Assembly: GCA_029262535.1 (NCBI GenBank)
Contig: JAJCZF010000074.1
Span: forward strand, 78,883 to 142,882
Direction of reading: 5' to 3'
DNA: 64,000 nucleotides
Source: Deltaproteobacteria bacterium
GTDB lineage: Bacteria; Desulfobacterota; GWC2-55-46; JAJCZF01
This document shows positions 26,464 through 50,326 of this stretch, piece by piece. Position 1 is the stretch's first letter. Each line of letters opens with the position of its first letter. Position numbers and translations under genes: made by a program. Below the pieces are notes generated by a model, which was not told the origin of the DNA, made no database searches, and worked only from the letters and a program-made list of their open reading frames with translations.

Positions 26464-26489
26464 CGGTTCGTGTGGATTCGTTCTAGTTA

Positions 26490-30856: not shown

Positions 30857-30881
30857 GAAGATTGCTCAAAAAAGAGATCTG

Positions 30882-31256
30882 ATGAAGATATTGATTATCG
30901 AAGATAATACCATTAATATGAAGCTTGCCAGCGATCTCATGGAGAGCGCCGGGTATGAGGTGCTTCAGGCCGTGGAGGCCGAAGCCGGGATAAGGCTCGC
31001 CAATGTTGAGCAACCGGAATTGATACTGATGGACATTCAGCTTCCGGACATCGACGGCATTACCGCCATGAGACTCCTGAAAGGGAATGAGAAGACCCGC
31101 GACATCAAGATAATCGCGCTCACGGCATTCGCCATGAAGGGCGACCGCGAGCGCATGCTCAAGGCAGGCTGCGACGGTTATATGGCGAAACCCATAAGAT
31201 ACAAAGAGCTCTTCAAGCTTATAAAGGTTATTACAGGTCATGCCGCTGATCTTTAA
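30882..31256 (+). CDS. Single-domain CheY-like response regulator
   Basis: 124 aa with IIEDN, DIQLPDIDG and K105-type residues. Confidence 0.85.
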   Translation: MKILIIEDNTINMKLASDLMESAGYEVLQAVEAEAGIRLANVEQPELILMDIQLPDIDGITAMRLLKGNEKTRDIKIIALTAFAMKGDRERMLKAGCDGYMAKPIRYKELFKLIKVITGHAADL

Positions 31257-31292
31257 TAAAGAGCTCTTCTTTTCCTTGAAAGGATTTGACTG

Positions 31293-32426: not shown

Positions 32427-32449
32427 GGCCGGACCACCAGAGATGACAT

Positions 32450-35400
32450 ATGAACGATAATGAAAAGACAAAGGAAGAGCTTATAAAAGAGCTGGCGGAG
32501 CTTCGCGCGAAGCCCTCAGAGGGCGTAGCCGCGGAGAGCGACCGGGACGAGTATAAGGCCTATTTCGATTATATGGGTGACGCCCTGATCGTCCTGGATA
32601 TGCACAGAAGGGTGCTGAGGCTTAATAAGTCCGCCAAGAGGATGCTTGGTTACTCGGACGAGGATATTTCCGGTCTGACTTTTGAGAAGCTCTTTCCGGA
32701 ACGTGAGCATAAGAGCCATTATGCCGAGATGGAGCAGGCTATTGAAACAAGGTCTATCAGGTCTATGGATACTACGCTCATCTCAAAGCGCGGGGTGGAG
32801 ATACCGGTGCTTCTGAGCGGTTCCGTAATGCTTGACCGGGAAGGCGAGCCGTGCGGTTTAATCGGCGTATGCAGGGATTACACACAGATCAAACGGCGCT
32901 ATGAAGATGAGTTATTGAGATCGGAACAGCGCTGCCAGCTCCACATAGAGAGGACCCCTCTCGCAGCCATAGAGTGGAACACCGACTTCGAGGTTGTGGA
33001 GTGGAACCAGGCCGCCGAGAAGGTTTTTGGCTATACAAGGGAAGAAGCCCTTGGCCGACATGCCGACTTTATCATCCACAAAGATGCCAGAGGCCATGTG
33101 GATAAGGTATGGCAAGATCTTATGGAAAGAGAGGGCGGCGAGAGAAGCACAAACCTGAACGTCACAAAGGACGGTAGGACCATATTTTGCGAGTGGTATA
33201 ATACACCGCTGGTCACAGGGGGCGGCGAGGTGATAGGAGCCGCATCTATGGCCCACGATGTAACGGAGCTTAAGGCGGCCCAAGATGCTCTTAGAAGTGC
33301 CCATTACGATCTTGAAGAGAAGGTCCGGGAGCGCACCGAAGAGCTGATAAAGACCAATGAGGCGCTCAGAGACAGAGAAAGAAGGCTCTTAGAGGCCGAA
33401 CGAGTCTCGGGGTTGGGTCATTGGGAGTACGACCTTCGAGACGGCAAACTCTACTGGTCCGATGAGGTCTACCGTATCTTCAACATGGACCCTGAAGAGA
33501 TAGAGTCCTCTTTTGATGCTTTTATGGAGAGGATTCACCCCGAAGACCGGGAAGAGGTCGCCAGGGCCTACCGGGAGTCGGTAGAGAACAAAACCGTCTA
33601 CGATATCGTCCACCGCCTCCTGATGGAAGACGGAAGCGTTAAGTATGTAAATGAGAGGTGCAAGACCGAGTATGACGAGGACGGGATTCCCGTGCGTTCC
33701 CTCGGTACGGTACTTGACATAACGAAACTCAAACAAGCGGAAGAAGCTCTCGGGGAGAGCGAGGGGAAATACCGCCGTTTGTTCGAGAACATGCAGGAGG
33801 GTTTTGCCTACTGCAAGATGGAGTTCGATGAACTCGGCAAGCCGGTTGATTGGGTCTACCTTGAGGTAAACGACTACTTTGAGCTTCTTACCGGACTCAA
33901 AAAGGAGGATGTGGTCGGCAAAAGGGTCACTCAGGCGATACCGACAATCAAGGAAACACACCCGGAACTCTTCGACATCTACGGCGACGTTGCTCTGACC
34001 GGCAGGCAGGCCAGGTTTGAAATCTATTTCAAACCCCTGGAGATATGGCTTTCCGTCGCGGCATACTGTCCGCGTAAAGGGTATTTTATTGCAATATTCG
34101 GCAACATCACGGAGCGTAAAGGGATTGAAGAGGCTCTGAGGGACAGCGAAGAGAGGTTCTCCAAGGTCTTCTATGCCTCGTCCGACATCATGGCGATAAC
34201 CAGGGTGAGCGACGGCCTGATCGTTGAGGTGAACGATACAATGTTGAAGCTGTTTGGCTACGAGCGCGACGAGCTCGTCGGCGATACCACGACCGGAAAG
34301 AATCTCTGGGGAGACCCCTCCGACCGCGATAGGATGGTCGAGATATTAAAGAGAGACGGTTGTATTAAGAACTTCGCTACGAAGGTTTGCACCCGTAGCG
34401 GTGAGTTACGCTCGATTATCTTCTCGGCCGACACCATTACTCTTCGTGGAGAGACGCACCTGATAACGCATGCAAGGGACATTACCGAAAAGCTTGAGGC
34501 GGAAGAACGTCTCAGGCAAAGCGAGGAGAAGTTCAGGGGAATCGCCGAGAGGAGTTACGACGCCATCCTGATGACCGACGCCGGGGGCCATTATACCTAT
34601 ATCTCTCCGGGAGATGAGAAGAACACCGGAGTAAAGGCCGAAGAGGGGATTGGCAAAGACTTCCGGGACTTTCTGCCGGAGAGATCGGTTCCGCTTGCCG
34701 ACAAGGCTTTCGCCAGGGTCCTTGGCGGCGAGACCGTAGAAGGGCTCGAACTTGAGGCCGTGCGCAGGGACGGCAGGCCCTTCTTTATCGAATGCAATAT
34801 CACTCCGGTCTATCAGGATAATGAAGTGTCCGGAACGCAGATAATATACAGGAATATCACGGAACGTAAGCGGGCCGATGAGGTTCGAATAAAGAATATC
34901 GAGTTGGAAAAAGTCAACAGGTTGAAGGACGAGTTTTTGGCGAATATGTCACACGAACTCAGGACCCCCCTTAATTCGATAATCGGCTTCTCGGAGATGC
35001 TCAAGGACGATATGGTCGGCAAGCTAACGGAAGTGCAGAAAGGACAGTGCGAGCTTATATTTAAGAGCGGACGACACCTCTTGGATCTAGTAAATGACAT
35101 ACTCGATCTTTCGAAGGTGGAGGCCGGAAAGATGCAGCTTGAGCTTGAGATGTCCAATATTTCTGAACTGCTCAAGACCGGCGGGCTTATCCTAAAGGAG
35201 ACGGCCCAGAAGCGCTCCATAGAGCTTTCACTGGACATTGCGGACGATATAGGTATCGTCTATGTGGACCCGGTAAGATTCAAGCAGGTAGCCTACAATC
35301 TCCTCTCTAACGCCGTAAAGTTCACCCCGGACGGCGGAAGTGTTTCGCTCTCGGCAAGGTCTATCGGCGCGGATCCGAACAGGATGCTGGAGGTAAGCGT

Positions 35401-35623
35401 TACCGATACCGGCATCGGTATACCGGAAAAGGATATTGAGAGACTCTTTACGCCCTTTGAACAGCTGGAGAATGTCTTTACCAAGAAATACGAGGGTACC
35501 GGTCTCGGACTCATGTTGGTAAAACGTCTCACGGAGCTTCACGGCGGTACTGTGGAGGTGAAGAGCAAAGAAGGCGAGGGGAGCACATTTACCGTAAGGA
35601 TTCCATACAGGGAGTCACTTTAA
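32450..35623 (+). CDS. Multi-PAS (about 5 PAS/PAC) sensor histidine kinase
   Basis: 1057 aa. Repeated PAS/PAC blocks are separated by coiled-coil linkers. H-box SHELRTPLNSIIGFSE. The ATPase core is nearly identical to that of the 27308 kinase. Confidence 0.85.
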   Translation: MNDNEKTKEELIKELAELRAKPSEGVAAESDRDEYKAYFDYMGDALIVLDMHRRVLRLNKSAKRMLGYSDEDISGLTFEKLFPEREHKSHYAEMEQAIETRSIRSMDTTLISKRGVEIPVLLSGSVMLDREGEPCGLIGVCRDYTQIKRRYEDELLRSEQRCQLHIERTPLAAIEWNTDFEVVEWNQAAEKVFGYTREEALGRHADFIIHKDARGHVDKVWQDLMEREGGERSTNLNVTKDGRTIFCEWYNTPLVTGGGEVIGAASMAHDVTELKAAQDALRSAHYDLEEKVRERTEELIKTNEALRDRERRLLEAERVSGLGHWEYDLRDGKLYWSDEVYRIFNMDPEEIESSFDAFMERIHPEDREEVARAYRESVENKTVYDIVHRLLMEDGSVKYVNERCKTEYDEDGIPVRSLGTVLDITKLKQAEEALGESEGKYRRLFENMQEGFAYCKMEFDELGKPVDWVYLEVNDYFELLTGLKKEDVVGKRVTQAIPTIKETHPELFDIYGDVALTGRQARFEIYFKPLEIWLSVAAYCPRKGYFIAIFGNITERKGIEEALRDSEERFSKVFYASSDIMAITRVSDGLIVEVNDTMLKLFGYERDELVGDTTTGKNLWGDPSDRDRMVEILKRDGCIKNFATKVCTRSGELRSIIFSADTITLRGETHLITHARDITEKLEAEERLRQSEEKFRGIAERSYDAILMTDAGGHYTYISPGDEKNTGVKAEEGIGKDFRDFLPERSVPLADKAFARVLGGETVEGLELEAVRRDGRPFFIECNITPVYQDNEVSGTQIIYRNITERKRADEVRIKNIELEKVNRLKDEFLANMSHELRTPLNSIIGFSEMLKDDMVGKLTEVQKGQCELIFKSGRHLLDLVNDILDLSKVEAGKMQLELEMSNISELLKTGGLILKETAQKRSIELSLDIADDIGIVYVDPVRFKQVAYNLLSNAVKFTPDGGSVSLSARSIGADPNRMLEVSVTDTGIGIPEKDIERLFTPFEQLENVFTKKYEGTGLGLMLVKRLTELHGGTVEVKSKEGEGSTFTVRIPYRESL

Positions 35624-36094
35624 AAGAGCCTACGATAGTACGCATTAATGGTATGTCAAGTAGCGTAGCGTCATGAAGTTTATCATAAGTTTTATCACAT
35701 TGGGGTGGAGTGAACCCCTGTAGTGAGATAGTTTTTCTTAGCACAATAGCGTTTCTGGTCTCCGGTGGCCGCTAATATTATGCAGCCCCCCTCTCTACCC
35801 TGGGGCGATCTAGGGAGAGGAGACCGGCGCACTCGACCCCGGTGAGGAAGTTGACCTGGGCGTGGATTTCGGCAAGGGCCCTGAAAGGGATACAAGGACG
35901 TCTAAAGCCCACCCATAAAGATTACCCAGTATTTAAAACATTTCCATCGTTAATCACTTATCTCGAAAAGTTGACCCTAAATCAGAATTATATTATAATT
36001 ATTCCTCACCGTAGGCCTTTCCCGTTTAGGGTGTTGATGACACCTCTCCCCATGAGCATTAAGGAATGGATTGAGTCAACATGTCTTAAGTTAG

Positions 36095-38176
36095 TTGATT
36101 GGGGTTGTTTCGATGCTCTCCTTATTTGTAGATCCTGATTTTTTAAGCAGGCCAATCCTTGACAGCCATTACAATCTTACCCTTGTCGCCCTTTCTTATG
36201 TGGTGGCCTCAATTGCCGCTTACGTAGCACTCTTTCTTTCGACACGCTTTCGCCTGGCTGCCACCGCAAAACAACGCTGGACATTGTTGGTATCAGGCGC
36301 TGTCTGTATGGGTGGGGGCATCTGGGCGATGCACTTTATCGGTATGCTGGCATTTCATCTGCCGGTCGAAGTCACATACGGCCTTTCTCTTACCTTTATC
36401 TCCCTGTTGATTGTTATCGCAGTATCGGCTTACGCCTTCTACCACGTCGGGCGCAAGAAGATAAGCAGATATAACCATCTCCTCGGAGCCGTCCTGATGG
36501 GGCTTGGAATCTCTTCAATGCATTACATGGGCATGGCGGCAATGCGCATGGATGCCATGGCACGTTACAGGCCGGGTATATTCTTCCTTTCGATAATCAT
36601 TGCCATAACCGCGTCCTATACCGCTCTGTGGCTCTTGCTCTACTTTTGCAAAGAAGAAAAAGGTCACGAAAATCTGTTCCACCTCCTAAGCGCTCTCGTT
36701 ATGGGGCTGGCGGTCGTTGGGATGCATTACACGGGAATGTATGCGGCGGTATTTGTCAAGACCACGACTTCACTGCCTCTCCAGGCAGCCGTCAACACAC
36801 ATCTACTGGCGTTTACCATCACGATAGCGGTAGCCGTCATCTTGTGTCTCGGCCTTCTGTCGGCCTTCCAGCTGGAGGTATCGCAGAGGAAGTCCGTCGA
36901 AGCGGCGCTAAGGGAGAGCGAGACCTTTCTGCGTACTATTCAGGAGAACGCCGCGGACGGCATCATCGTCATTGATGACGGCGGAACTATCAAAAGCTTC
37001 AATATGGCTGCGGAGAAGATGTACGGCTACTCCGCCGACGAGGTGTTAGGCAGGAACGTAGATATCCTTATGTCTGAGCCCTACCATAGCAGCCATAACG
37101 CATACCTTGAAAGGTATATTCGTACGAAGGAAAAGCGAATTATAGGAGTAGGCCGAGATGTGGAGGCCCTGAGGAAAGACGGGACCGTCTACCCAATACG
37201 CCTTGCCGTAAGCGAAACGTTCATTGGAGATTGTCGATCGTTTACCGCCATACTCCACGATCTTACAGAACAAAAAAAGGCCGAGGAGGATCTTAGGAAA
37301 CTTTCGCGCGCCGTGGAACAGAGCCCGGTAACAGTCATGATAACCGACCTCAATGGCGATCTGACCTACGTAAATCCGAAGTTCTGCGAGGTCTCCGGGT
37401 ACGAGGCTGAGGAGGTCATTGGAGAAAACCCTCGTTTTCTGAAATCAGGCCATACCTCGGATGAGGAGTACAAGACGCTTTGGAAGACGATCAGCTCCGG
37501 CAACGAATGGCGCGGAGAGCTCCACACCAGGAAGAAGAACGGAGAGCTCTTCTGGGAGTCGGCCTCAATCTCCCCTATTAAATCCGCCGATGGCGCGATC
37601 ACGCACTACGTAGCCATTAAGGAGGATCTTACCGAGAGAAAACGACTTGAAGAAAAATTAAGGGAACTATCGTTTGTTGATGGACTGACCGGTCTTGCCA
37701 ACCGCAGGAGCTATGAAAAGGCCATCAAGAACGAGTGGAACCGTGCGAAGCGCACGAAGACGGCTATCTCCGTCATCATGATTGATATCGATTATTTCAA
37801 ATCTTATAACGATACCCTGGGCCACGCCGCCGGAGATGAATGCCTGCGTAGCGTTGCCCTGTCTCTTAAATCGAAGACTGTCAGGGGCGGCGATATGCTT
37901 GCCCGTTACGGTGGAGAGGAATTTATCGTGATTCTACCCAGTTCCGACAAAAATACGGCAACCAGGCTGGCCGAGATACTCAGGGCGAAGGTCGAGTCGC
38001 TTGGCATAAAACACCCTGCGTCAGTAATATCAGATTATGTCACCATAAGTCTCGGAGTCGCATCTACGATTCCCGGTGAGGTAAGTGATTCAAGCACGCT
38101 CGTCTCGGCGGCTGATGGTGAGTTATACCGTGCTAAAGAGGAGGGTAGGAACATGGTTAAGGGAATAGAATTATAG
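36095..38176 (+). CDS. MHYT-domain membrane sensor, two PAS domains, GGDEF diguanylate cyclase
   Basis: Three MHY[IMT]GM repeats within 6-7 TM helices, then two PAS domains, then RYGGEEFIV (GGEEF). Confidence 0.85.
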   Translation: MIGVVSMLSLFVDPDFLSRPILDSHYNLTLVALSYVVASIAAYVALFLSTRFRLAATAKQRWTLLVSGAVCMGGGIWAMHFIGMLAFHLPVEVTYGLSLTFISLLIVIAVSAYAFYHVGRKKISRYNHLLGAVLMGLGISSMHYMGMAAMRMDAMARYRPGIFFLSIIIAITASYTALWLLLYFCKEEKGHENLFHLLSALVMGLAVVGMHYTGMYAAVFVKTTTSLPLQAAVNTHLLAFTITIAVAVILCLGLLSAFQLEVSQRKSVEAALRESETFLRTIQENAADGIIVIDDGGTIKSFNMAAEKMYGYSADEVLGRNVDILMSEPYHSSHNAYLERYIRTKEKRIIGVGRDVEALRKDGTVYPIRLAVSETFIGDCRSFTAILHDLTEQKKAEEDLRKLSRAVEQSPVTVMITDLNGDLTYVNPKFCEVSGYEAEEVIGENPRFLKSGHTSDEEYKTLWKTISSGNEWRGELHTRKKNGELFWESASISPIKSADGAITHYVAIKEDLTERKRLEEKLRELSFVDGLTGLANRRSYEKAIKNEWNRAKRTKTAISVIMIDIDYFKSYNDTLGHAAGDECLRSVALSLKSKTVRGGDMLARYGGEEFIVILPSSDKNTATRLAEILRAKVESLGIKHPASVISDYVTISLGVASTIPGEVSDSSTLVSAADGELYRAKEEGRNMVKGIEL

Positions 38177-38399: not shown

Positions 38400-38546
38400 A
38401 TTGACTCGGACCGATTTTATCATAATTAGCACAATTTGGCCGACTCGGAAGAGACGGCCAAAGACGCCACAGCGTAAGCAGTTGTTTTAGAAGAGGAAAA
38501 GTGGTGGGCGGTACTGGGTTCGAACCAGTGACTTCCACCGTGTGAA
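38400..38546. repeat. About 145-bp direct repeat, copy 1. It carries the R2 tail, a roughly 60-bp tRNA-Val 3'-flank and a 45-nt copy of the tRNA-Val 3' half (38502-38546, minus orientation).
   Basis: Identical or near-identical to 41583..41715. The tRNA part is an exact 45-nt match to the 3' half of the intact tRNA-Val. Confidence 0.65.
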
Positions 38547-38797: not shown

Positions 38798-40237
38798 ATG
38801 TTAAAGAAAATTATTTTAATAGCTTTTTTGCTTGTCCCCTTTGCAGCCCCCTTTGCCATTGCAGGCGGTGCGGATTGGTCATTCGTGGCGGATGAAATAG
38901 AGACCGCCTTGCATTCGGCCGGGGAAGCGTATGGCGAAGGGAATGTAATAGAGGCGCAGGACACCGTGTCACGGGCATACCTCGAACTCTTCGAGGGCGG
39001 GGGGTTGGAAGCCGCCATAAGCCTTCACATATCCGAGAGGCGTAAACTGGATATCGAAGAGATGTTCGGGACGGTCAGAGACGCCATGGACCCTGGAGGA
39101 CCCGTCTCCGGGGTCATGGAGAAAGTTGACCTGCTGGTCTCAACTCTCAAGGAAGTAGCCCGGAGCCTACCGGTAAATGGCGGACCAAAAGAGTCTGCGC
39201 TTTCGCTCTTTTTCAAGTCGTTCATAATAATCCTGAGGGAGGGCTTCGAGGCCATACTCGTTATAAGCGCCCTTTCGGCATGGCTTGTAAAATCCGGACA
39301 TACTGATAAGGTCAGGACCATTTATAAAGGTGCGGGAGCGGCCCTCGTAGCAAGCGTCATTACCGCTATTTTGCTACAGACGCTGATTAAGATAAGCGGC
39401 GCGGGCAGGGAGGCCCTTGAAGGCGTTACCATGCTCCTTGCCACCGCGGTCCTCTTTTACGTTAGCTACTGGCTCATAAGCAAGATAGAGATAGGGCGGT
39501 GGCAGAATTATATAAGGTCGAAGGTCGAGGGTTCGCTCACGAGAGCCAACCTCTTCGCCCTCGGGTTTGCGGCCTTCCTCGCCGTCTATCGAGAAGGGGC
39601 GGAGACGATACTATTTTACGGGGCCCTCTATTCCTCGTCCGGGGGAGAGAGTTCCATAATTGCCTCGGGATTCATTATTGGGGTTCTTGCCCTTGTCGGA
39701 GTTTTTATCATCATCCAATATACGAGCGTGCGCATTCCCATAGGTCCGTTCTTTGCTGTAACGTCAACCCTCCTTTATTACCTTGCCTTCAGTTTTGCGG
39801 GAAAAGGAACACACGAACTACAGGAGGCCGGATGGATATCCTCTACCGTTGCCGAAGGGCTCCCGACGATTCGCTTCCTGGGTATCTATCCGACCTGGGA
39901 GGGCGTATGGGTACAGTCGCTCCTCTTCCTGGCTCTTCTGTTTGCTGTCCTTTACTGTCTTGTTATAAGACCTTACAGGGAAAGAGGAACTCTCTCTAAC
40001 GGCCTGACCCATATGGAGCTCGACATCAGATCCCTCCACAATATGCTTAATTCCGTAAGCGAGCACGCCATGAAGGCCCACGGACTCTCAAGCGGGCGTG
40101 CAGACCGAGAGGCGGACGAGATAAGAAGGCACCTTGTACGCATAGACTCAAAGGTACATTTGGTGATGGAGCATTTAATGAAGCTCAAAGAAGGTATATT
40201 TACAGATACGGAAAGGGATATAAAGAAGGCGCCTTAG
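38798..40237 (+). CDS. FTR1/EfeU-family high-affinity iron permease with N-terminal periplasmic extension
   Basis: Two REGxE motifs (ILREGFEAIL and VYREGAETIL) in TM helices. Signal peptide plus a roughly 130-aa N-terminal soluble domain. RBS GGAGG. Confidence 0.75.
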   Translation: MLKKIILIAFLLVPFAAPFAIAGGADWSFVADEIETALHSAGEAYGEGNVIEAQDTVSRAYLELFEGGGLEAAISLHISERRKLDIEEMFGTVRDAMDPGGPVSGVMEKVDLLVSTLKEVARSLPVNGGPKESALSLFFKSFIIILREGFEAILVISALSAWLVKSGHTDKVRTIYKGAGAALVASVITAILLQTLIKISGAGREALEGVTMLLATAVLFYVSYWLISKIEIGRWQNYIRSKVEGSLTRANLFALGFAAFLAVYREGAETILFYGALYSSSGGESSIIASGFIIGVLALVGVFIIIQYTSVRIPIGPFFAVTSTLLYYLAFSFAGKGTHELQEAGWISSTVAEGLPTIRFLGIYPTWEGVWVQSLLFLALLFAVLYCLVIRPYRERGTLSNGLTHMELDIRSLHNMLNSVSEHAMKAHGLSSGRADREADEIRRHLVRIDSKVHLVMEHLMKLKEGIFTDTERDIKKAP

Positions 40238-40335
40238 AAGAAACACTTATTAATTAGTGGTTCGAAGCAACGAGCCCTATGGTATTTACCGGTTCAAAAT
40301 TATAATAACTGCAATCCATAAAGGAGATATAGACC

Positions 40336-41193
40336 ATGTACAAAAAAAGCAGGTATCTGGCAGTCGTATTGTTGTTGGGAGCGTTCGCAGTCCTTCCGTC
40401 TTTTGTCTACGGCGCTAACGGCGCTAACTTCGTCCTTTACAACCATCACACCGCCGAGCCGGGGGAGATGGAGATCATGCTGATGATGGATATTGGCCAG
40501 GAGCCGGACGGCACCAATTATACTGCCCAGATGGTCGAATTCGAGTTGGGGATAACGGAGAGGTTTACGGCTGAGTTCATGGTCGAGGGGCAGACGACCT
40601 CCGGTGAAGACGGGTATCATTTCACGGGTTTCAGGTTGGAAGGCCGGTACCGTCTCTTTGAATACGGGACATTCTTAAACCCCGTACTTTACGTAGAGTA
40701 CGAAGATTTGAGTGAGGACACCAAGTACGTGATGGAGATGAGCGGCAGGGAGGATGCGTCGGAAAAGCATAAATCCAGGCCATCGAGGGAACGGGTGCTT
40801 GAGACAAGGCTCATCCTCGGCCACGATATTACCGATAGGTTCGATGTGGCTCTGAACTGGCTAAACGAGAGCGATCTGGACACGGGGGTAACTGCCTTTG
40901 GGTACGCGGTGGGCCTTAATTACGGCCTCCGGGCTTTTGGCGGCGGTTCTTCCGGTCATATGGAGGACAAAAGCGAGGTCCATAAAAGCGTAACGCTCGG
41001 CCTTGAAATCTTCGGCGGCCTGGGTGATAGCGACAAGGGTTTGACCGCAAATGGAAACCTCACCCAGCACTACTTCGCTCCAAACCTTAAAATACACGCC
41101 ACGGAAAAGGTCATGGTAAAGTTCGGCGGGGCGATAGGGCTTACCAACGTCAGCCAGGATATATTCAGGCTCGCCCTGGGCTATGAGTTTTAA
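40336..41193 (+). CDS. Outer-membrane beta-barrel protein of unknown function
   Basis: Signal peptide, alternating amphipathic beta-strands and a C-terminal ...LALGYEF ending in Phe. RBS AAAGGAG. Confidence 0.6.
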   Translation: MYKKSRYLAVVLLLGAFAVLPSFVYGANGANFVLYNHHTAEPGEMEIMLMMDIGQEPDGTNYTAQMVEFELGITERFTAEFMVEGQTTSGEDGYHFTGFRLEGRYRLFEYGTFLNPVLYVEYEDLSEDTKYVMEMSGREDASEKHKSRPSRERVLETRLILGHDITDRFDVALNWLNESDLDTGVTAFGYAVGLNYGLRAFGGGSSGHMEDKSEVHKSVTLGLEIFGGLGDSDKGLTANGNLTQHYFAPNLKIHATEKVMVKFGGAIGLTNVSQDIFRLALGYEF

Positions 41194-41475: not shown

Positions 41476-41669
41476 AATTTTCGTAAGGGCATGATCTTGT
41501 TCTGGCTTCCCTGTTTACCTGCTAAAATCAAAATCTTAGATGAGTTCGAACAATTCTATAGAGTCTAATCCAGTCCATTGTTTCAGGCTGATTTTATTAC
41601 AATTTGGCCAATTGAAAACGATAGGTCAAAGACGCCACCGCGTAAGTTGTTGTTTTAGAAGAAAAAAAC
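41476..41669. repeat. R2 repeat plus tail, copy 2. It lies immediately 3' of the tRNA-Val gene and is part of the approximately 145-bp direct repeat.
   Basis: Aligns block-for-block with 38556..38695 (R2) and with 38400..38501 (tail). Confidence 0.55.
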
Positions 41670-41744
41670 TGGTGGGCGGTACTGGGTTCGAACCAGTGAC
41701 TTCCACCGTGTGAAGGTGGCACTCTACCGCTGAGTCAACCGCCC
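41670..41744 (-). tRNA. tRNA-Val (anticodon CAC)
   Basis: The reverse complement GGGCGGTTGACTCAGCGGTAGAGTGCCACCTTCACACGGTGGAAGTCACTGGTTCGAACCCAGTACCGCCCACCA folds into a cloverleaf. Acceptor 7 bp, D-arm, anticodon stem CCACC/GGTGG with loop TTCACAC, T-arm ACTGG-TTCGAAC-CCAGT, and an encoded CCA. Confidence 0.85.
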
Positions 41745-43309: not shown

Positions 43310-43572
43310 GATCAAAGGCTCTCTTTTTATCTAATACAAATTTCTGAATTTTATGCAAAAATTTGTATTGCATGTTGCGGCTGGGGCTTCAGAATTCTTA
43401 TAACTATTTAATATATAAGAGCTTTCTTTTTACGGGTCTTTATTTTTATTTGGCATGTTCTTTGCAATTTACTATCATTAATTAATTTGAGCCATCGCAG
43501 CTTTTTTCAGTCTCTAATCTTCCTCTAAGCGACAAGAGGCTATGGTTGATGTAATAAGGAGAGATTTTAACT

Positions 43573-44304
43573 TTGAAAATTCTTTTTAATGATATGAAGA
43601 TGGCCATTGGCCGCGACGGGCGTTTTATGCTTCGCCTCTTTGGGATTGACAGCCCGGAGAGGATTGAGGTCGAGCAGTTCGCTCATCGCGTATATAAGAA
43701 ACATTACGGAGCGGATCTGCGCTCTTTTAGCCGCGAGATGCTGGCCCTTACTTCGGACAGTGGGCGTGTTCTTAGCTGTGTGGGTATTAATATGCCCGAA
43801 AACGGCCCGCTCTTTTTGGAACACTATACTGGCGGTCCGGTTCAGGAGGCCATAGCCGCGGCCAGGCCGGAAGTTGAAGATGTCAAACGGGCCGAAGTTG
43901 TAGAGGTCGGTACCATGGCCGTACATCCGAAGGGGCTTTGCCGTTTGATGATGGCGGCGCTAGCCGGAGTGGTTGCCGCGCGCGGTAAGAGATATATCGT
44001 CTTTACGGCTGTTAAGAACCTCCAGAATACACTAGATAGTCTCAAGATACCCTTTACAGTACTTGCCGATGCAGATATGTCTGCACTGCCAAGGGTTGAT
44101 GAAGGTGGGACCGACTGGGGCCGTTATTATAATTCTTCGCCAAAGGTTATCGTGCTCGATCTCTTACAGGGCTGGTCCCGTGTGGGAGAGATACTGGATA
44201 ACGCCAATGGCGATAGCGCGCCGGATATGGCGCGGATCATGTCGGACCTATTTGCCGAAGGCGAATACCTTGAATCTCCACATAAGGGAGGCAGGGTAGC
44301 CTAG
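43573..44304 (+). CDS. Thermostable-hemolysin-like (PF12261-type) protein with GNAT/acyltransferase-like fold
   Basis: Recalled family blocks REMLAL, PLFLEHYTGGPVQEAI, EVVEVGTMAV, YIVFTAVKNL and WGRYYNSSPKV. About 240 aa. TTG start with RBS AAGGAGAG. Confidence 0.5.
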   Translation: MKILFNDMKMAIGRDGRFMLRLFGIDSPERIEVEQFAHRVYKKHYGADLRSFSREMLALTSDSGRVLSCVGINMPENGPLFLEHYTGGPVQEAIAAARPEVEDVKRAEVVEVGTMAVHPKGLCRLMMAALAGVVAARGKRYIVFTAVKNLQNTLDSLKIPFTVLADADMSALPRVDEGGTDWGRYYNSSPKVIVLDLLQGWSRVGEILDNANGDSAPDMARIMSDLFAEGEYLESPHKGGRVA

Positions 44305-44306
44305 AG

Positions 44307-45869
44307 ATGAAGTTTTGGCGGAGCATCCTCCACCATGCAAAAGAGTCCCCGACACGGCTTGCGCTCGGTCCCGTCACCTATGACGGGCTCAGGTCAGCCG
44401 TAACCCGTGTAGTTCGCTCTCTACCCGATATGTCGGGAAAGAGGGTCGGCCTCTTTCTCGGCAACGGCCCACTCTTTGGAGTATACGATATCGCCCTTAC
44501 CCTCAAGGGCGCGGTAGTAGTGCCCCTTCCTGGCTTTTTTTCCACTGAACAGTTAGAGCATCTTATTGTTGATGCGGCCCTCGATACGGTAGTGATCGAG
44601 AGTGGTTGCGATGAGGGATTTCATTCGCTACTGGCTTCTCTCGATGTGATTGAAGCCGATACCGGACATCTTGTTTCCTCCAGTGAGGAAGAAGACGGAG
44701 GTGACGGGGGTGACGGGCAAGAGCTGGTTTTATCCGAGCTATCTCCTTCCACAGTTGTTAAGATAATATATACCTCCGGCACGACCGGCAGTCCGCGGGG
44801 CGTTATGGTCACTCTTGCAGCACTTGAGGCCGTGACCGAGTCGCTCATCGAGCGTAGCGAGGCGACCGGGAGCGATAGCCATCTGTCGCTCTTGCCGCTT
44901 TCGACCCTGCTTGAGATAATCGGCGGTATCTACGTGCCGCTAACCGTTGGGGCAACGGTTACCTACCTGCCCGCTGGTGGTATGGGTGGGGTTACCGCAG
45001 ATCCTTCGGCCCTTATAAAGGCAATTGAGTTTATCAGGCCTACGACCACGATAGTCGTTCCTTCGCTGCTGGAGCTGCTCGTGCGTTTCTTTGAAGAGGC
45101 CGGGGTCAGGCCCGAAGGCTTTCGTTTTATCGCGTGCGGCGGAGCGCCGGTAGCCGTTTCACTGCTTCTTCGGGCAGAGGCTCTGGGACTTCCGGTCTTT
45201 CAGGGTTACGGCCTTTCCGAGTGCGCCTCTGTCGTCACATTAAACGAGTTGCTATCAAACCGTATAGGCTCTGTTGGCAAGCCCCTTTCGCATGCCGGAG
45301 TAACCGTAAGCGAAGAGGGTGAGATCGTTGTGACCGGCCCGGCGGTTCTTGCCGGTTACGCGTCGGGAGGTAAAGAGTTCTCGTTAGAGTACCCGACCGG
45401 TGATATAGGCCGTTTGGACGAGGACGGTTATCTATATATCGAAGGGCGTAAGGATAATGTGATCGCGCTGGCCAACGGCAGGAATCTCTCGCCGGAATGG
45501 GTAGAGGGTCTAGTATCGTCCCTTAAATTCGTAAAACAGGTCGTCGTCTTCGGCACAGGCATGGAGGGCGCGGTCGCTCTTTTGGTAGTTGACCATGAAT
45601 GGCTAAGGTCGACTGCTGAGAGGTTTTCTGATAAATCTCCCGTGGAAGAGCTTGTTGATAACCCACTTATAATAAAGACGGTATTGGATGAGATAATAGC
45701 AGCTTGTAAGGACCTTCCGGACTATGCGCATATTCAAAGGGTGAAAGTTTTGGCAAAACCTTTTACGATAGAGAACGGTCTTCTAACCCACAACTGGAGG
45801 CCGCGTCGCAAGGAAATTTTCAAGCGTTACGAAAAGGATATAGAGAGACTATACGAAGAAGATCTGTAA
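44307..45869 (+). CDS. AMP-dependent synthetase/ligase (ANL superfamily adenylating enzyme)
   Basis: A3 core IIYTSGTTGSPRGVMVT, A5 GYGLSEC-like and A8 IGRLDEDGYLYIEGRKDN. Starts 3 bp after the upstream stop. Confidence 0.85.
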   Translation: MKFWRSILHHAKESPTRLALGPVTYDGLRSAVTRVVRSLPDMSGKRVGLFLGNGPLFGVYDIALTLKGAVVVPLPGFFSTEQLEHLIVDAALDTVVIESGCDEGFHSLLASLDVIEADTGHLVSSSEEEDGGDGGDGQELVLSELSPSTVVKIIYTSGTTGSPRGVMVTLAALEAVTESLIERSEATGSDSHLSLLPLSTLLEIIGGIYVPLTVGATVTYLPAGGMGGVTADPSALIKAIEFIRPTTTIVVPSLLELLVRFFEEAGVRPEGFRFIACGGAPVAVSLLLRAEALGLPVFQGYGLSECASVVTLNELLSNRIGSVGKPLSHAGVTVSEEGEIVVTGPAVLAGYASGGKEFSLEYPTGDIGRLDEDGYLYIEGRKDNVIALANGRNLSPEWVEGLVSSLKFVKQVVVFGTGMEGAVALLVVDHEWLRSTAERFSDKSPVEELVDNPLIIKTVLDEIIAACKDLPDYAHIQRVKVLAKPFTIENGLLTHNWRPRRKEIFKRYEKDIERLYEEDL

Positions 45870-46100
45870 GGATTAAGAACGCGGAGAGGGAACTTTCAAG
45901 TAACGAAGCTTATTCCGCGAAAATAAAACCACACCTGTGTGGATATAGAGAGATTATACGAAGAAGATCTGTAAGGCTTTAAAACGCGGAGAGGGAATTC
46001 AAGTAGCTAAGAACTTGCACCGCGAAAATTGGCCCCGTATACTGTGCGGCTGTGCGGAGCTAAAATAAGAGCACACTGGTATGCCACACCTGTGTGGAAG
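45835..46100. repeat. Tandem direct duplication (about 105 bp and about 160 bp units) beginning inside the last 35 bp of the ANL ligase gene
   Basis: GATATAGAGAGA(C/T)TATACGAAGAAGATCTGTAAGG ... AACGCGGAGAGGGAA ... CCACACCTGTGTGG occurs twice in tandem. The second unit carries an insertion of about 50 bp. Confidence 0.7.
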
Positions 46101-46111
46101 GAGAATAAGGT

Positions 46112-46930
46112 ATGAGGGGATTTTTACTGTACAGGATCTTTGGTATAACGCTTGCGTTAGTTGTAGTTGCGCTCTTTTCCACGGCCTCACTGGCAGTCGA
46201 GACTTCGCAAAGCCATGTGGCGAAGGGCGATATGTACTATGCAAAGCGCGCCGACGGACACAGGGACGATATGGCGGCGGTAAATATTATAATGTCGGCC
46301 ATTGACGAGTATAAGTTAGCATACGAGATGGGCGACCACTCGTCGGAACTTGTTGAAAAGACTATGCGCGCTAACTTCTTTTACGCCACATATGCCGAGA
46401 CCGATAAAGATAAGCAGAAAGCGGCCTTTGAGCACTCTATAAAGATAGCCGAGGAGTTTTTAAAGGACGACCCGGATAATGTCGCTATTAATTATCAGAT
46501 ATCCGGGGCCTGGGGGCGTTGGGGAGAGGTCAACGGCATAATAGCCTCGGCCCGCAAGGGTGTTGCCGACAGGGTTAAGGAGTATGGCGAGAAGACGGTC
46601 GCGTTCGATGCCGACTTTGGCGATGGCGGCGGATACAGAACGCTCGGCAGGCTTCATCTTATGGTGCCGAGAATTCCTTTCATCCTCTCATGGCCGAGCA
46701 ATAAGGAGAGTGAAAAATATCTGGCCAAGGCCGTGAAGGTCGGGCCGGACAACCTGACCAACCACCTTTTTTATGCCGAGACACTTTATGAGAACGGTTC
46801 CTATGTAAAGGCCATGGAAGAGGTCAATATCGTGCTCAGGAACGGCGCAAGGTCCGATTATCTCGTTGAAGATTTGAGGGACCAGAGCGACGCGCGCAAG
46901 CTCAAAGAGAAGATAAATAAGAAGTTATAG
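46112..46930 (+). CDS. Secreted/periplasmic TPR-like repeat protein
   Basis: Signal peptide. Helical repeat pattern with Y/A/G spacing. No enzymatic motif. Confidence 0.55.
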   Translation: MRGFLLYRIFGITLALVVVALFSTASLAVETSQSHVAKGDMYYAKRADGHRDDMAAVNIIMSAIDEYKLAYEMGDHSSELVEKTMRANFFYATYAETDKDKQKAAFEHSIKIAEEFLKDDPDNVAINYQISGAWGRWGEVNGIIASARKGVADRVKEYGEKTVAFDADFGDGGGYRTLGRLHLMVPRIPFILSWPSNKESEKYLAKAVKVGPDNLTNHLFYAETLYENGSYVKAMEEVNIVLRNGARSDYLVEDLRDQSDARKLKEKINKKL

Positions 46931-46942
46931 GAACTCTTAAAA

Positions 46943-48028
46943 TTGACCAGTAAAGAAGATTTCGACATTCAGGCCATAAAGGACTATGTGCCGGACGCGT
47001 TATGGGATTCCTTTAAGCTGAACCCAGAGCGTTTAGGAGAGCTGCGGGTCCTTGAGGCGAGTATCTATCTCACGCGCGACTGCAACTTGAAGTGCCAGTA
47101 CTGCAAGATCATAAAGACCGAACTGGAAGAAGAGCTCTCTATCGAAAGGTGGATAGAGGCGGTCGATATCCTGGAGTCGCTCGGTATCAGGTTCGTTAAT
47201 ATCGCGGGTGGAGAGCCTACGGTCGTTAAGGGGCTTTCCAGGTTGATAAGCCACCTCGACAAAAATACCACGATGGATTTTTCCGTTGTATCCAATTCGC
47301 TCTTTGGTGATAATATGGCCCGCGAGCTTGCCGAGGCAGGCCTCCGGGCTTATGTGGCGAGCGTGGATGTGCTCGGCGACGACGTTGCTTTGGACGATCT
47401 GAGGAAGTCGAGCGCCGGAATAAAGATGCTCGCAAAACTAAAAGAGCTAGGCGTACCCTACCTCTGCGCTAATATTGTCGTATCGGCCCAAAATATCGAT
47501 AAGGTAATGGATGTGGTAAGGTATCTTAGCGACGAGGGCGTCTGGGTGAATATCTGCCCGATCCTATGGGGCAAGGGCGATAAGTGGGACAAGATCGAGG
47601 CGGCCGACCGGACCTACAGGCTTGGGCCTGAGCACAAGGCGCGCCTTACCGCCTTAAGCAAAGAGATAATAGAGTATAAACGGACCGGCGCGCTCATACT
47701 GCCGACCGAACAGTATATCGAGGCCATGCCGGATTACGGTATTTCGCTTTCATGGAAATGTTTCGACGAAGAAAAGCCCGGCCCGCCGCCGCGCCTTACT
47801 ATAGACGCCGACGGCGCGATGATGACATGTATAAATATGCGCGGCGATCTTTCTGTCAAACACTCTATATTCGATCTAAAAGATAAAGATCTATTTGAAG
47901 AATTTATTTCGGACTGGTGGCGGGACGCAAGCAGCTGTACCGGTTGTTATTGGTCCACTATGGTTATGGCTCAGGAGCGTCAGGAGACGCTCGAACGGCT
48001 TAAGACGGGAAGCTCTGATTTATTCTAG
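46943..48028 (+). CDS. Radical SAM enzyme with C-terminal Cys-rich (SPASM/twitch-like) region
   Basis: CNLKCQYC near the N-terminus, GGEPT and C-terminal CINMRGD...SSCTGCYWS. The final 7 codons and stop codon lie inside MITE copy B. Confidence 0.7.
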   Translation: MTSKEDFDIQAIKDYVPDALWDSFKLNPERLGELRVLEASIYLTRDCNLKCQYCKIIKTELEEELSIERWIEAVDILESLGIRFVNIAGGEPTVVKGLSRLISHLDKNTTMDFSVVSNSLFGDNMARELAEAGLRAYVASVDVLGDDVALDDLRKSSAGIKMLAKLKELGVPYLCANIVVSAQNIDKVMDVVRYLSDEGVWVNICPILWGKGDKWDKIEAADRTYRLGPEHKARLTALSKEIIEYKRTGALILPTEQYIEAMPDYGISLSWKCFDEEKPGPPPRLTIDADGAMMTCINMRGDLSVKHSIFDLKDKDLFEEFISDWWRDASSCTGCYWSTMVMAQERQETLERLKTGSSDLF

Positions 48029-48172
48029 GCGAAGTAGATTGTGATCGAAAATGTTCAGATTCAAGGCGTGAATCGCAAGTAATAGCAAGCTATTGCTAAG
48101 ATTCGCAACGCGGAAGCTAGGCATTTTAGGCGCAAGATACGAGTCTACGAATAGATCAGAGCTTCCCTAAGA
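48006..48172. mobile_element. MITE-like repeat, copy B (inverted relative to copy A at 5893..6070)
   Basis: Both TIRs are present (GGGAAGCTCTGATTTATTC ... GAATAGATCAGAGCTTCCCT). The internal palindrome is TAGCAAGCTATTGCTA. Confidence 0.6.
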
Positions 48173-48188
48173 TGATGGGAGATCATAA

Positions 48189-48995
48189 GTGAATTTAAAG
48201 GGAAAGAACGTCATAATAACTGGCGCCGCTGGCGGCATAGGGCGCAACATGTCGCTCGCGTTCGCTTCAAAGGGCGCAAATATAAGTCTGGTGGACAGGG
48301 CCGAAGCGCAACTTGAGACGGTCCGTAAGGAAGTAGAGGCCAAGGGAGTAAAGGCCGTCGCTATTGCGGCCGACGTAACTGTGGAGGCCGATATAGAGCG
48401 CATAGTAAAGGATACGGAGTCCGGACTCGGCCAGGTCGACGTTCTTGTAAATAACGCGGGCATAATGCCCTTCAAACTCACAGTGGACCACAGCGCGGCG
48501 GAGGTTATGGCGGCGCTTATGGTCAACGTATACGGCCCGATAAGGCTCTCGCAGTCCGTGCTTGTCGGCATGCTCGAACGCGGCTCCGGGCGTATAGTGA
48601 ATATCGGCTCGACCTTCGGTTCTATGGGCTTTCCCTACTTTAGCGTATATTCGGCCACAAAGGGCGCGATGAAGATCTTTACCGAGTCGCTACGCCGCGA
48701 GCTTCACGATGTGAAGGGCGTCGGCGTAACATACGTCGCCCCGCGCGCGGTGAAGTCCTCCCAGCCCGAGATATTTTTCGAGATGGCCAAGAAGATGAAG
48801 ATGAATCTGGACGAGCCCGGCTATGTATCCGATATCGTCGTCTCCGCCGTTGAGAAGGGCGAGTCAGAAGTCTATATCGGTGGTCAGGAAAAGTTCTTCA
48901 TGTTAATCAACAAGCTAAAGCCCTCCATGATCGACGGCGGCCTGAAAAAGCAGGTATCGATCATGAAAGAATACTGCCCAAAAATGTCAAAATAG
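48189..48995 (+). CDS. SDR-family oxidoreductase
   Basis: ITGAAGGIGRNM, NNAGI and YSATKGAMK. Confidence 0.8.
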   Translation: MNLKGKNVIITGAAGGIGRNMSLAFASKGANISLVDRAEAQLETVRKEVEAKGVKAVAIAADVTVEADIERIVKDTESGLGQVDVLVNNAGIMPFKLTVDHSAAEVMAALMVNVYGPIRLSQSVLVGMLERGSGRIVNIGSTFGSMGFPYFSVYSATKGAMKIFTESLRRELHDVKGVGVTYVAPRAVKSSQPEIFFEMAKKMKMNLDEPGYVSDIVVSAVEKGESEVYIGGQEKFFMLINKLKPSMIDGGLKKQVSIMKEYCPKMSK

Positions 48996-49047
48996 GCTTG
49001 AGTTTCTTTGCGTTTTAAGTTATTCTGCAGTGAGGAGGTGAGAATAA

Positions 49048-49589
49048 TGAAACTATCTAGAGCAACAATTCTCTTCTATGCTGATGAATATGACAAAGAA
49101 TTTAAGGGCAAAAAAGAGACAAAGATTGAGGATACTGTTAAGCCAAAGATAAAGAATCAAACCTACTTAACGAGTGAGGATTTAATAGAAATTGCTAAGT
49201 GGAAGTCGCCTAGGTCAGCTTGGCGTTGCGAAGATAATGAATCGGAATTCATTAAAGAAGTTACGAAGATTGCTTTTAAAAGCACTAATGAGCAGGTGAA
49301 AATTGAAGTGTTGCAGTTGTTAAAGGGGGTCCGCTATCCGATGGCTTCCTCTATATTGCATTTTAGATTTCCAAATGAGTACCCTATAATTGATTTTAGA
49401 CTACTTGAAATTTTAGAATTTGTAAAAAAAGAAGAGACAATAAAGTACAATTTTAGCCTTTGGGAAAAATATCGTAAAAGGATTGAAGAGATAAAAGATA
49501 GAACCGGCCTTGACATAAGAACGATAGATAAGGGCTATTGGTGGAAACATAGGGATGCCGGGAAAATGAAAAGAAATAGATGTAATTGA
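49048..49589 (+). CDS. Hypothetical protein (low-GC ORFan, Lys/Glu-rich)
   Basis: Strong RBS GGAGGTGAGAATA before ATG 49048. The surrounding 0.9 kb is markedly more AT-rich than the flanks. No recognisable motif. Confidence 0.5.
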
Positions 49590-49815
49590 CACCACTCAAC
49601 TTCACAAACTCTAGACTTCAAAACCTATGTGGCGCGGCCAAGAAGCTTCCGGCTCATATAAACTTACCCCGTGAAAATAAACACACGACCGTGTGCGACC
49701 GTGCAATTCGGACTTTTCAGATACTTTTGTCCGCTTAGAAGGAACCTTGCGGAATACCAATACAAAATAATAATCCTTTAAAAACAAACCGTTGTAAATT
49801 TCTTCAAAAAAGAGG

Positions 49816-49844
49816 TTGACAAAGCAATAATTGTGGGATAAAAA
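49816..49844 (+). promoter_or_regulatory. Sigma70-like promoter (TTGACA, 17-bp spacer, TAAAAA) for the Rrf2 regulator and cytochrome oxidase operon
   Basis: Exact -35 hexamer, a 17-bp spacer and a 4/6 -10 match, about 30 bp upstream of the Rrf2 start. Confidence 0.3.
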
Positions 49845-49876
49845 AGACTTAAGAGGTCCTTAAAGGGGGGATTCCA

Positions 49877-50326
49877 ATGTTTAAATTAAGCAGAGGCGCT
49901 GAGTATGCGATCCGAGGTCTTTTATATCTATCCGGCCAGCCTACGGGTAAGGTCTCTTATATAGAAGAGATTTCCAACGCACAGCAGATTCCGCGGGCAT
50001 ATCTTGCAAAGATCTTTCAGACCCTTAGTAAAAAGGGCTTTGTTAAATCATACAGAGGCCCGGAGGGTGGTTTCGCGCTTACAAGGGACCCTGCCGAGCT
50101 AACGCTTTTAGAGGCGGTCGAGGCGATGGAGGGTCCTATCCACCTGAACGAGTGCCTGATTCACAGCGGTTACTGCGAGAGGGAGGATATGTGTCCCATA
50201 CACGACGTATGGAATCAGGCGCATGAGAAGCTTATGGAGGTCCTTACGGGCACTACATTTGCCGGGCTTGCAGAGGCCGGTAGAGAGAAGGCGGCAAAGG
50301 CGCGGGATAAACGCGCCGCAAGTTAG
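49877..50326 (+). CDS. Rrf2-family transcriptional regulator with three-Cys cluster (IscR/NsrR-like)
   Basis: The N-terminal wHTH MFKLSRGAEYAIRGLLYL is typical of Rrf2. The C-terminal spacing CLIHSGYCEREDMCPIH suggests an Fe-S ligand set. Confidence 0.8.
   Translation: MFKLSRGAEYAIRGLLYLSGQPTGKVSYIEEISNAQQIPRAYLAKIFQTLSKKGFVKSYRGPEGGFALTRDPAELTLLEAVEAMEGPIHLNECLIHSGYCEREDMCPIHDVWNQAHEKLMEVLTGTTFAGLAEAGREKAAKARDKRAAS

Follow-up and report, generated by a model that had tools for sequence, protein, structure and literature searches.

A thermostable-hemolysin-family protein in a conserved five-gene cassette with a radical SAM enzyme: a probable operon for an acylated small molecule

Introduction

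The question raised by this locus is what a "thermostable hemolysin" gene does when it is followed directly by the gene for an adenylate-forming (ANL) ligase. The locus lies in a 64,000-nt stretch of DNA from a Deltaproteobacteria bacterium (GenBank assembly GCA_029262535.1, contig JAJCZF010000074.1, positions 78,883 to 142,882), and this whole stretch is referred to below as the window. Open reading frame (ORF) coordinates and a Pfam scan placed five same-strand (+) ORFs at window positions 43573-48995, with matches to T_hemolysin, AMP-binding, tetratricopeptide repeat (TPR), Radical_SAM and adh_short, and the products are named here the T_hemolysin-family protein (T_hem), the ANL ligase, the TPR protein, the radical S-adenosylmethionine (SAM) enzyme (rSAM) and the short-chain dehydrogenase/reductase (SDR). 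The same five-gene cassette had been delimited in a preliminary description, which took it for an acylated-metabolite or modified-peptide system.

The five genes are a real, conserved operon. The reading that we prefer, with a probability of about 0.55, is that the locus is a sigma-54-dependent biosynthetic operon for an acylated hydrophobic small molecule and, with its radical SAM enzyme, a sister of the dth-region cassette, which is widespread. There is nothing unusual in the enzyme superfamilies, and the "dth region" of Vibrio is already named in the literature. Neither the cassette as a biosynthetic unit nor its two-component link or radical-SAM version was found described in the searchable literature, which is incomplete, so that absence there is not proof; the preliminary description likewise knew of no characterisation of the full combination.

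Gene content and conservation

Related contigs were numbered L001-L058. A contig look-up with rSAM orthologues gave L007, L009 and L011-13, a genome scan with a T_hem alignment gave L014, L015 and L050 (the closer alignment A2 was used, the 9-sequence alignment A1 being too diverse), and a metagenome scan with an rSAM alignment gave L056 and four partial contigs. The rSAM-type cassette was found with all five genes intact in 6 other distinct loci (L007/L008, L014, L009, L011-13/15/54/55, L050 and L056), the order of the rSAM and TPR genes being swapped in L009, and the partial contigs L051, L052, L057 and L058 were consistent with it. The hosts were a "Deltaproteobacteria" metagenome-assembled genome (MAG; L007), a Nitrospirota MAG (L009) and Thermodesulfobacteriota contigs (L011-13). 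The preliminary description would have been undone had the five genes never co-localised elsewhere; besides these six loci, four of the five genes also stand together in 25 further complete loci, a co-localisation far beyond chance. None of the five reading frames in the window cassette is shortened in comparison with its homologues.

The recurrent pairing with an AMP-dependent ligase, mentioned in the preliminary description, is seen throughout: T_hem adjoins the ANL gene in all 31 other complete cassettes, and in relatives of rSAM type the two either overlap or lie end to end. The close spacing described for the window copy was measured as 2 nt. The ANL and TPR genes overlap in L007, L011 and L056, and the rSAM and SDR genes overlap in L007 and L011.

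Through a distant T_hem homologue (28% identity) a sister cassette was found with the order T_hem - ANL - Haem_oxygenas_2 - SDR - TPR, in which the third gene encodes a haem-oxygenase-like diiron oxidase (HDO). The genome scan recovered it complete in 25 loci of Gamma/Betaproteobacteria type, together with further truncated copies, and the hosts include Pseudomonas, Stenotrophomonas maltophilia, Lysobacteraceae, Arenimonas, Rhodoferax, Tepidiphilus, Azonexus and Motiliproteus. Each intact cassette holds exactly one of HDO or rSAM, and none holds both (the HDO of L036 was recovered by tblastn). No HDO homologue (Haem_oxygenas_2, PF14518) was found in the window or in any rSAM-type locus, so the window is a sister variant and not a member of the dth-region type. 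Identities between the window and Pseudomonas L019 were 34% for T_hem, 36% for ANL and 29% for the C-terminal 113 residues of the TPR protein. Neighbour-joining trees of ANL, SDR and T_hem each separated the rSAM-type loci as one clade from all HDO-type loci, and this concordance indicates that the cassette evolved as a unit, with a single, ancient exchange of the oxidase. T_hem and ANL pairs of Streptomyces fell outside both types, closer to the rSAM-type clade in the T_hem tree.

Judged by published gene numbers, the Vibrio genes that gave the family its name belong to the HDO-type cassette. In V. cholerae, VCA1110 ("DthC"), a predicted long-chain fatty-acid ligase, adjoins dth VCA1111 (PMC12208996; dth also in PMC6474259), and in V. 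parahaemolyticus VP1729 (hemolysin) and VP1731 (iron-containing redox enzyme) were linked to the two-component gene VP1735 (PMC10469919).

Reduced versions were also encountered. T_hem and ANL occur without the other genes in L045/L046 (Streptomyces), T_hem occurs alone in L041 (Zetaproteobacteria), and in L030 (8471-9405) a deletion fuses remnants of ANL and HDO in a decaying cassette; these patterns indicate that the T_hem-ANL pair is the minimal core and that T_hem can stand alone.

Table 1. Features of the cassette and of its surroundings in the window.
Feature	Position	Strand	Details
T_hemolysin-family protein	43573..44304	+	243 aa; TTG start preceded by AAGGAGAG; Pfam PF12261
ANL adenylate-forming ligase, fatty-acid/CoA-ligase-like	44307..45869	+	520 aa; AMP-binding and AMP-binding_C_3
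Secreted TPR protein, TatT/BstC T-component type	46112..46930	+	272 aa; weak Pfam TPR_19
Radical SAM enzyme	46943..48028	+	361 aa; CX3CX2C and one 4-Cys auxiliary site
Classical SDR, PRK09072-like	48189..48995	+	268 aa; Pfam adh_short E=1.3e-50
Putative enhancer (upstream activating sequence) for a sigma-54 activator	43334..43368	+	AT-rich inverted repeat ATACAAATTT-N15-AAATTTGTAT, read from the sequence
Sigma-54 (-24/-12) promoter	43451..43466	+	TGGCATGTTCTTTGCA, near-consensus
Tandem duplication across the ligase stop codon	45836..46029	+	105-nt unit, 1.8 copies, 85% matches
MITE-like insertion between the rSAM and SDR genes (MITE, miniature inverted-repeat transposable element)	48007..48166	+	160 nt; 19-bp terminal inverted repeats GGGAAGCTCTGATTTATTC...GAATAGATCAGAGCTTCCC

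Protein families and folds

The first gene belongs to the family that the preliminary description had named, and on which it had staked its reading. The Pfam match to PF12261 (E=9.5e-43, 146.4 bits against a cutoff of 27) covers profile positions 5-172 of 174. A word-indexed protein search with the single T_hem sequence gave 6 matches only, and a 22-sequence profile was used thereafter. An AlphaFold2 (AF2) model built from 121 homologues had a pLDDT of 89.5 and a pTM of 0.87 and is a compact alpha/beta acyltransferase fold, and no N-terminal hydrophobic signal was found in the window protein sequence. The best matches of this model in the PDB by Foldseek were TofI (1.3e-8), LasI (1.3e-7), MesI (8e-7), FeeM (3e-6) and BjaI (3e-6), with RpaI and EsaI also present. 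The GNAT-like structure that had been expected was thus narrowed, the N-acyl-homoserine lactone (AHL) synthases of LuxI type (E=1.3e-8 to 1.6e-5) and FeeM outranking the generic GNATs. A profile search of PDB sequences with T_hem gave no relative. Eleven residues invariant in the family (121-sequence alignment A4) are all kept in the window protein: G71, E83, Y85, R106, E111, A167, W182, G183, Y185, Y186 and P190. From the modelled fold, T_hem would be a LuxI/FeeM-fold acyltransferase that places an acyl group on an amine.

In rSAM-type T_hem proteins, four positions that are near-invariant in about 110 of 118 other family members are changed (P54R/S/K, R73N, N114T and W141Y/F). These clade-specific changes may reflect a shift of substrate or partner accompanying the exchange of HDO for rSAM.

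The Pfam family name suggests another function, in which the product of the first gene would be a "thermostable hemolysin" that is secreted, binds lipids and forms pores, and its neighbours would be accessory or unrelated. In Vibrio, dth and delta-vph serve as hemolysin markers (PMC6474259), and purified recombinant deltaVFH of Vibrio fluvialis was cytotoxic, caused pyroptosis, was present in the supernatant and bound phosphatidylserine (PS), phosphatidic acid (PA) and phosphoinositides (PMC11033176). For the window protein a toxin is nevertheless quite unlikely, as it has no signal peptide, an enzyme fold and 11 invariant residues that are described as polar or aromatic. Across the 32 complete cassettes T_hem is never without a neighbouring ligase gene, and the two co-evolve with three further genes for enzymes or carriers. 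The hosts are environmental Thermodesulfobacteriota and Nitrospirota MAGs with no obvious eukaryotic target, and hemolysis, where it occurs, could stem from a surfactant-like acyl product. The family, the fold, the ligase pairing and the conserved combination together make adenylation-activated acyl transfer, as put forward in the preliminary description, the better reading of the window locus.

The ligase gave Pfam matches to AMP-binding (E=2.9e-48, 165 bits) and AMP-binding_C_3, and the ANL core motifs YTSGTTGSPRG, GYGLSE, PTGDIG and GRKDN were read in its translation. Among curated and solved proteins it comes nearest to long-chain fatty-acid CoA ligases, MenE, oxalate-CoA ligase and FadD13. 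The SDR carries the TGxxxGxG and YxxxK motifs (ITGAAGGIG and YSATK in the window) and falls just below the NCBIfam PRK09072 cutoff (224 bits against 238), whereas the SDR of the HDO-type cassette is a true member (283 bits). In L001, the only HDO-type locus for which gene calls were available, there is a 4-nt overlap between the SDR and HDO genes.

ANL and SDR are a common catabolic pairing, and the locus might on that ground serve catabolism or salvage, with the ligase activating an exogenous fatty or aromatic acid, a degradative oxidase and a dehydrogenase acting on it and the TPR protein taking part in uptake. TatT-type proteins have been described as import-associated (PMC10942540), and in V. 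cholerae the elongation of a fed odd-chain fatty acid was changed by a transposon insertion in vca1110, a mild phenotype that its authors attributed to promiscuity (PMC12208996). Such a role is unlikely here, given a cassette without beta-oxidation, thiolase, hydratase or tripartite ATP-independent periplasmic (TRAP) permease genes and headed by a LuxI/FeeM-fold transferase, which is a biosynthetic type of enzyme.

The fourth protein is a radical SAM enzyme (Pfam Radical_SAM E=4.7e-18, 66 bits against a cutoff of 29.5) with its CX3CX2C motif at C47/C51/C54. Its auxiliary cysteines, C273, C296 (in GX4C) and C332-X2-C335, are invariant in 70/70 distant relatives at 25-42% identity, and these four C-terminal cysteines indicate one auxiliary-cluster site of twitch-like kind and not a 7-Cys SPASM domain. 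Of the rSAM/SPASM assignment made earlier, the first half therefore stands and the second does not: Pfam gave no SPASM match, and the 7-Cys motif CX9-15GX4C...CX2CX5CX3C...C is absent. No NCBIfam equivalog was matched by the enzyme or by ten relatives at 30-42% identity. About 45 orthologue clusters at 54-68% identity were found, and the fold neighbours are SkfB, MoaA, SuiB, BlsE and viperin, none of them close. Matches to PADLOC pVip models cover the generic N-terminal core only, and a defence role of the enzyme was rejected.

With the peptide maturases SkfB and SuiB among the nearest solved enzymes by sequence and by fold, the locus could be taken for a modified-peptide system, in which the rSAM enzyme would mature a ribosomally synthesized and post-translationally modified peptide (RiPP) that the ligase and the acyltransferase then acylate. 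This is very unlikely. MoaA, BlsE and viperin are equally close by fold, and there is neither a Pfam SPASM match nor a peptidase or transporter gene. In L007, L011 and L056 the genes run into each other or abut, so that there is no conserved precursor ORF, and the sizeable gaps of the window copy consist of the tandem duplication and the MITE only. That HDO fills the rSAM slot in the sister cassette points to small-molecule chemistry. Of the two products named in the preliminary description the acylated metabolite was accordingly retained, and the modified peptide was given up for want of a conserved small ORF and on account of the HDO in the sister slot.

The TPR protein had been called secreted, and its N-terminus (MRGFLLYRIFGITLALVVVALFSTASLA) is indeed signal-peptide-like. 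Its only solved sequence relative is BstC (PDB 7t1s, E=5.2e-8 over ~130 residues), and the NCBIfam BstC model matches it at 6.5e-11, with 42 bits against a cutoff of 350. A precomputed Pfam match of the cassette TPR proteins is to RMD1-3. BstC, a periplasmic protein of TatT type, has a hydrophobic cavity in which it binds sterols (PMC10942540), and by homology the TPR protein is a candidate periplasmic binder of the hydrophobic product.

Regulation

The pattern TGGCAYN5TTGCW was matched 2 times in 64 kb against 0.04 expected, and one of the matches is the cassette promoter (Table 1). An equivalent sigma-54 element lies 5' of the first gene in L007, L014, L009, L011 and L050, which gives 6 of the 7 distinct rSAM-type loci with the window included, L056 being outside the tally. 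The AT-rich inverted repeat lies ~85-115 nt upstream of the -24 element, and similar AT-rich motifs (TGCAAAAATTTATAT, ATACAAAAATTT) are found 5' of the cassette in L007, L014, L050 and L011; on this pattern the repeat is a putative enhancer for the activator. The second exact match to the sigma-54 pattern (22765-22780, minus strand, TGGCACCAAGGTTGCT) lies inside a kinase gene, on the strand opposite to that gene.

A sensor kinase gene and a sigma-54 activator gene lie immediately upstream in all six other complete rSAM-type loci (6/7 with the window), and between L011 and L007 the activators share 59% identity. Only the window departs from this pattern, with RuvX and MltG genes upstream of the cassette in place of the pair, and the Sigma54_activat domain was absent from the nine signalling and neighbouring genes of the window that were tested. 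In the HDO-type cassette a response regulator gene directly follows the TPR gene in 24 loci, and a kinase was also detected in 21 of these; Pfam identified an OmpR-type regulator and a 2CSK_N kinase in L019 and L020, with HAMP also in L019.

The kinase and the sigma-54 activator adjoining other rSAM-type cassettes suggest that the product is either a signal that the kinase senses or an envelope lipid made on its command. As a signalling system, the LuxI-fold "hemolysin", fed by its own ligase, would make an acylated autoinducer sensed by the adjacent histidine kinase, which is possible but doubtful. The same doubt applies to the details of such a system, in which tailoring would be done by HDO in aerobes and by the radical SAM enzyme in anaerobes and the periplasmic TPR lipid-binder would act as a chaperone.

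As envelope-lipid remodelling, the cassette would make an N-acyl aminolipid or a similar membrane lipid, a BstC-like protein would ferry it to the outer membrane, and the two-component system would switch it on under envelope or environmental stress. This can be entertained as a tentative minority reading. The sole solved relative of the TPR protein is a lipid-trafficking protein, a dedicated exporter gene is absent from the cassette, and the HDO-type layout runs on one strand from the enzymes to an OmpR-type regulator and a 2CSK_N/HAMP kinase, to which eptA(pmrC)-pmrA-pmrB is a comparable enzyme-regulator-kinase arrangement. N-acyltransferases of FeeM/OlsB type yield membrane-active lipids. 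On the other side, there is no O-acyltransferase or flippase gene such as aminolipid pathways usually have, and none of the lipid acyltransferases tested is as near in fold to T_hem as the AHL synthases. The signal and the lipid cannot be separated by these features, since the fold and the kinase link fit a signal while the BstC-like carrier and the pmrCAB-like layout fit a lipid.

Insertions and neighbouring features of the window copy

The tandem duplication that had been described at the 3' end of the ligase gene was found there (Table 1). Both copies carry the last 11 ligase codons and the stop, and the duplication fills the 242-nt gap between the ANL and TPR genes, a gap absent in the relatives. 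The MITE, which had been taken as the downstream boundary of the cassette, turned out to be internal, lying between the rSAM and SDR genes. It supplies or rewrites the last 7 rSAM codons and folds as a single long hairpin (-76 kcal/mol, z=-8), and a second copy at 5903-6062 is in inverted orientation and 86% identical. For a further MITE downstream, positions 49585-49880 were compared by blastn with the rest of the window, and no match was found.

Within 49585-49880 the one recurrence is a motif of 23 nt, GAAAATAAA and then a CACAC...GTGTG hairpin, of which the 64 kb contain just two copies, at 45919-45941 inside the ANL-TPR tandem duplication and at 49673-49695 downstream of a low-GC ORF. Both have the look of intrinsic terminators on the minus strand, and the nearby genes are all on the plus strand. 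The low-GC (34%) ORF of 193 aa lies at 49008-49589, between the SDR and Rrf2 genes, and has a weak match (E=2e-8) to phrog_24538, a phage family of unknown function; no Pfam, NCBIfam or PADLOC match was found for it. It is absent from the syntenic locus L007 and is therefore probably a recent insertion.

Upstream of the cassette, positions 21970-38176 hold a signalling block with a GAF histidine kinase, a receiver-kinase hybrid, two receiver and HD-domain (HD_5) proteins, a MHYT-PAS-GGDEF protein and two proteins of >1000 aa with blastp similarity to histidine kinases. Paralogous repeats lie inside the block (29725/35380, 80% over 233 nt; 22679/24267; 25957/32151). A 121-nt direct repeat (84%) at 38426-38546 and 41594-41714 and a 45-nt repeat family at 11783, 38597 and 41514 were also found. 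The 121-nt and 45-nt repeats bracket 38798-41193 (an FTR1-like permease gene and a 285-aa ORF without a Pfam match), just upstream of ruvX, and may mark an inserted or rearranged segment where the relatives have the kinase and activator pair.

Discussion

The domains, the T_hem fold, the slot shared by HDO and rSAM and the regulatory link are observed; for the substrates, the reaction types and the role of the product we infer the following sequence. The ANL ligase would adenylate a carboxylic acid, probably a fatty acid, to give acyl-AMP or acyl-CoA. The cytoplasmic LuxI/FeeM-fold T_hem would then transfer the acyl group to an amine acceptor, which may be an amino acid or a SAM-type substrate. 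The rSAM enzyme with its single 4-Cys auxiliary site would carry out an oxidative tailoring that the O2-using HDO would perform in the proteobacterial version, and the SDR may provide the paired redox step, its gene overlapping that of rSAM in relatives and that of HDO in L001. The signal-peptide-bearing BstC/TatT-like TPR protein would finally hold the product in the periplasm for outward delivery. Expression would depend on a sigma-54 activator, which in this genome must lie outside the neighbourhood of the cassette.

Besides the cytotoxicity of deltaVFH, several findings weigh against a biosynthetic operon of this kind. The Foldseek TM-scores of the T_hem model with AHL synthases, normalised to the target, are only about 0.5-0.68, and at the sequence level the protein is a member of neither the LuxI nor the N-acyl amino acid synthase (NAS) family, Pfam giving T_hemolysin alone and NCBIfam nothing. 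At the A10 motif site the ligases of the cassette family (L001, L007, L009, L011, L019) read NGRL(R/K)R, with Arg for the canonical catalytic Lys; the window ligase reads NWRPRR at the expected site (45775-45810, residues ~490-502), as judged by eye without a reference alignment. Members of either cassette type have no assigned substrate, product or activity, and no carrier protein or transporter gene was found in the cassette. Cytochrome oxidase genes just downstream indicate that the host is not a strict anaerobe, and the substitution of an O2-independent enzyme is argued by analogy only. The window copy has no adjacent two-component system and bears two insertions (tandem repeat and MITE), so its expression is only predicted. 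Finally, in L053 an rSAM orthologue (8923-10020, 57% identity) has no T_hem, ANL or TPR gene in the 9 kb upstream. Those 9 kb are high in GC and, as read by eye from the translations, contain genes for a probable TonB-dependent receptor, for an ABC transporter and for a cobalamin adenosyltransferase-like protein, and the contig ends 421 nt past the rSAM gene; L053 may be a different context or a chimeric or truncated contig.

If the biosynthetic reading is true, a virulence-marker family of Vibrio is recast as the acyltransferase of a conserved five-gene, two-component-linked biosynthetic module of Proteobacteria, Thermodesulfobacteriota and Nitrospirota. The diiron HDO and the radical SAM enzyme in the same slot of sister cassettes form a clean natural experiment: once the reaction of either is solved, one orphan clade of HDO and one of radical SAM enzymes would both gain a function, and a new pair of O2-dependent and O2-independent enzymes would be defined. 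Should the product be a signal, it would represent a new class of autoinducer whose receptor is a kinase, one that would also occur in anaerobes, for which few such systems are known; the dth/delta-VPH "hemolysin" locus of Vibrio would then serve signal synthesis, and sulfate-reducer-like and Nitrospirota lineages would share the system. Should it be an envelope lipid, it would be a new lipid with a BstC-like carrier.

Comparison with known systems

The closest known system is the dth-region/delta-VPH cassette of Vibrio and other Gamma/Betaproteobacteria, itself uncharacterised beyond its hemolysin label. Four of the five genes are homologous, T_hem is first and ANL second in a co-directional block in both, and both are tied to a two-component system. 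Neither this sister cassette nor the sigma-54 promoter and the near-universal two-component link had figured in the preliminary description. The rSAM type differs in having rSAM for the diiron HDO, in having the TPR gene before the SDR gene and not last, and in having a sigma-54 activator upstream where the dth-region type has an OmpR-type regulator downstream.

LuxI-type AHL synthases (BjaI, RpaI, MesI and LasI/TofI/EsaI) are the best structural matches to the T_hem model, and BjaI and RpaI use acyl-CoA and not acyl-ACP according to their PDB titles, which would suit the partner ligase of the window cassette. The window protein lies outside their sequence families, its cassette adds tailoring enzymes and a periplasmic carrier, and the receptor for its product, if there is one, would be a histidine kinase in place of the LuxR protein of the AHL systems. 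FeeM, an N-acyl amino acid synthase from the fee cluster of soil environmental DNA, also matches T_hem in structure (E=3e-6, TM up to 0.67) with no detectable sequence similarity. FeeM draws acyl-ACP from a dedicated carrier protein, whereas the window cassette encodes none; clusters of its type have tailoring enzymes alongside, and their products are long-chain N-acyl amino acid derivatives.

BstC, the sterol-binding T-component of Methylococcus, and TatT (Tp0956) are homologous to the TPR protein, which is predicted to be secreted, all-helical and TPR-like as they are. The window protein is far below the BstC equivalog cutoff, and no bstA/bstB or sterol genes lie nearby. The twitch/SPASM-group enzymes SkfB, MoaA, SuiB and BlsE are the closest solved sequences and folds to the rSAM enzyme and share with it a C-terminal Cys-ligated auxiliary site. 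Identity to them is just 15-20%, the window enzyme has 4 and not 7 auxiliary cysteines, and unlike this group it has no peptide or nucleotide substrate setting.

The exchange of HDO for rSAM recalls AcsF/BchE and HemF/HemN, in which an O2-using enzyme (diiron in AcsF) and a radical SAM enzyme carry out one and the same step of a pathway, each in its own lineages. For those pairs the two reactions are established, while for HDO and rSAM the equivalence is drawn from gene position only; the likeness lies in two enzymes that are mutually exclusive in otherwise homologous cassettes.

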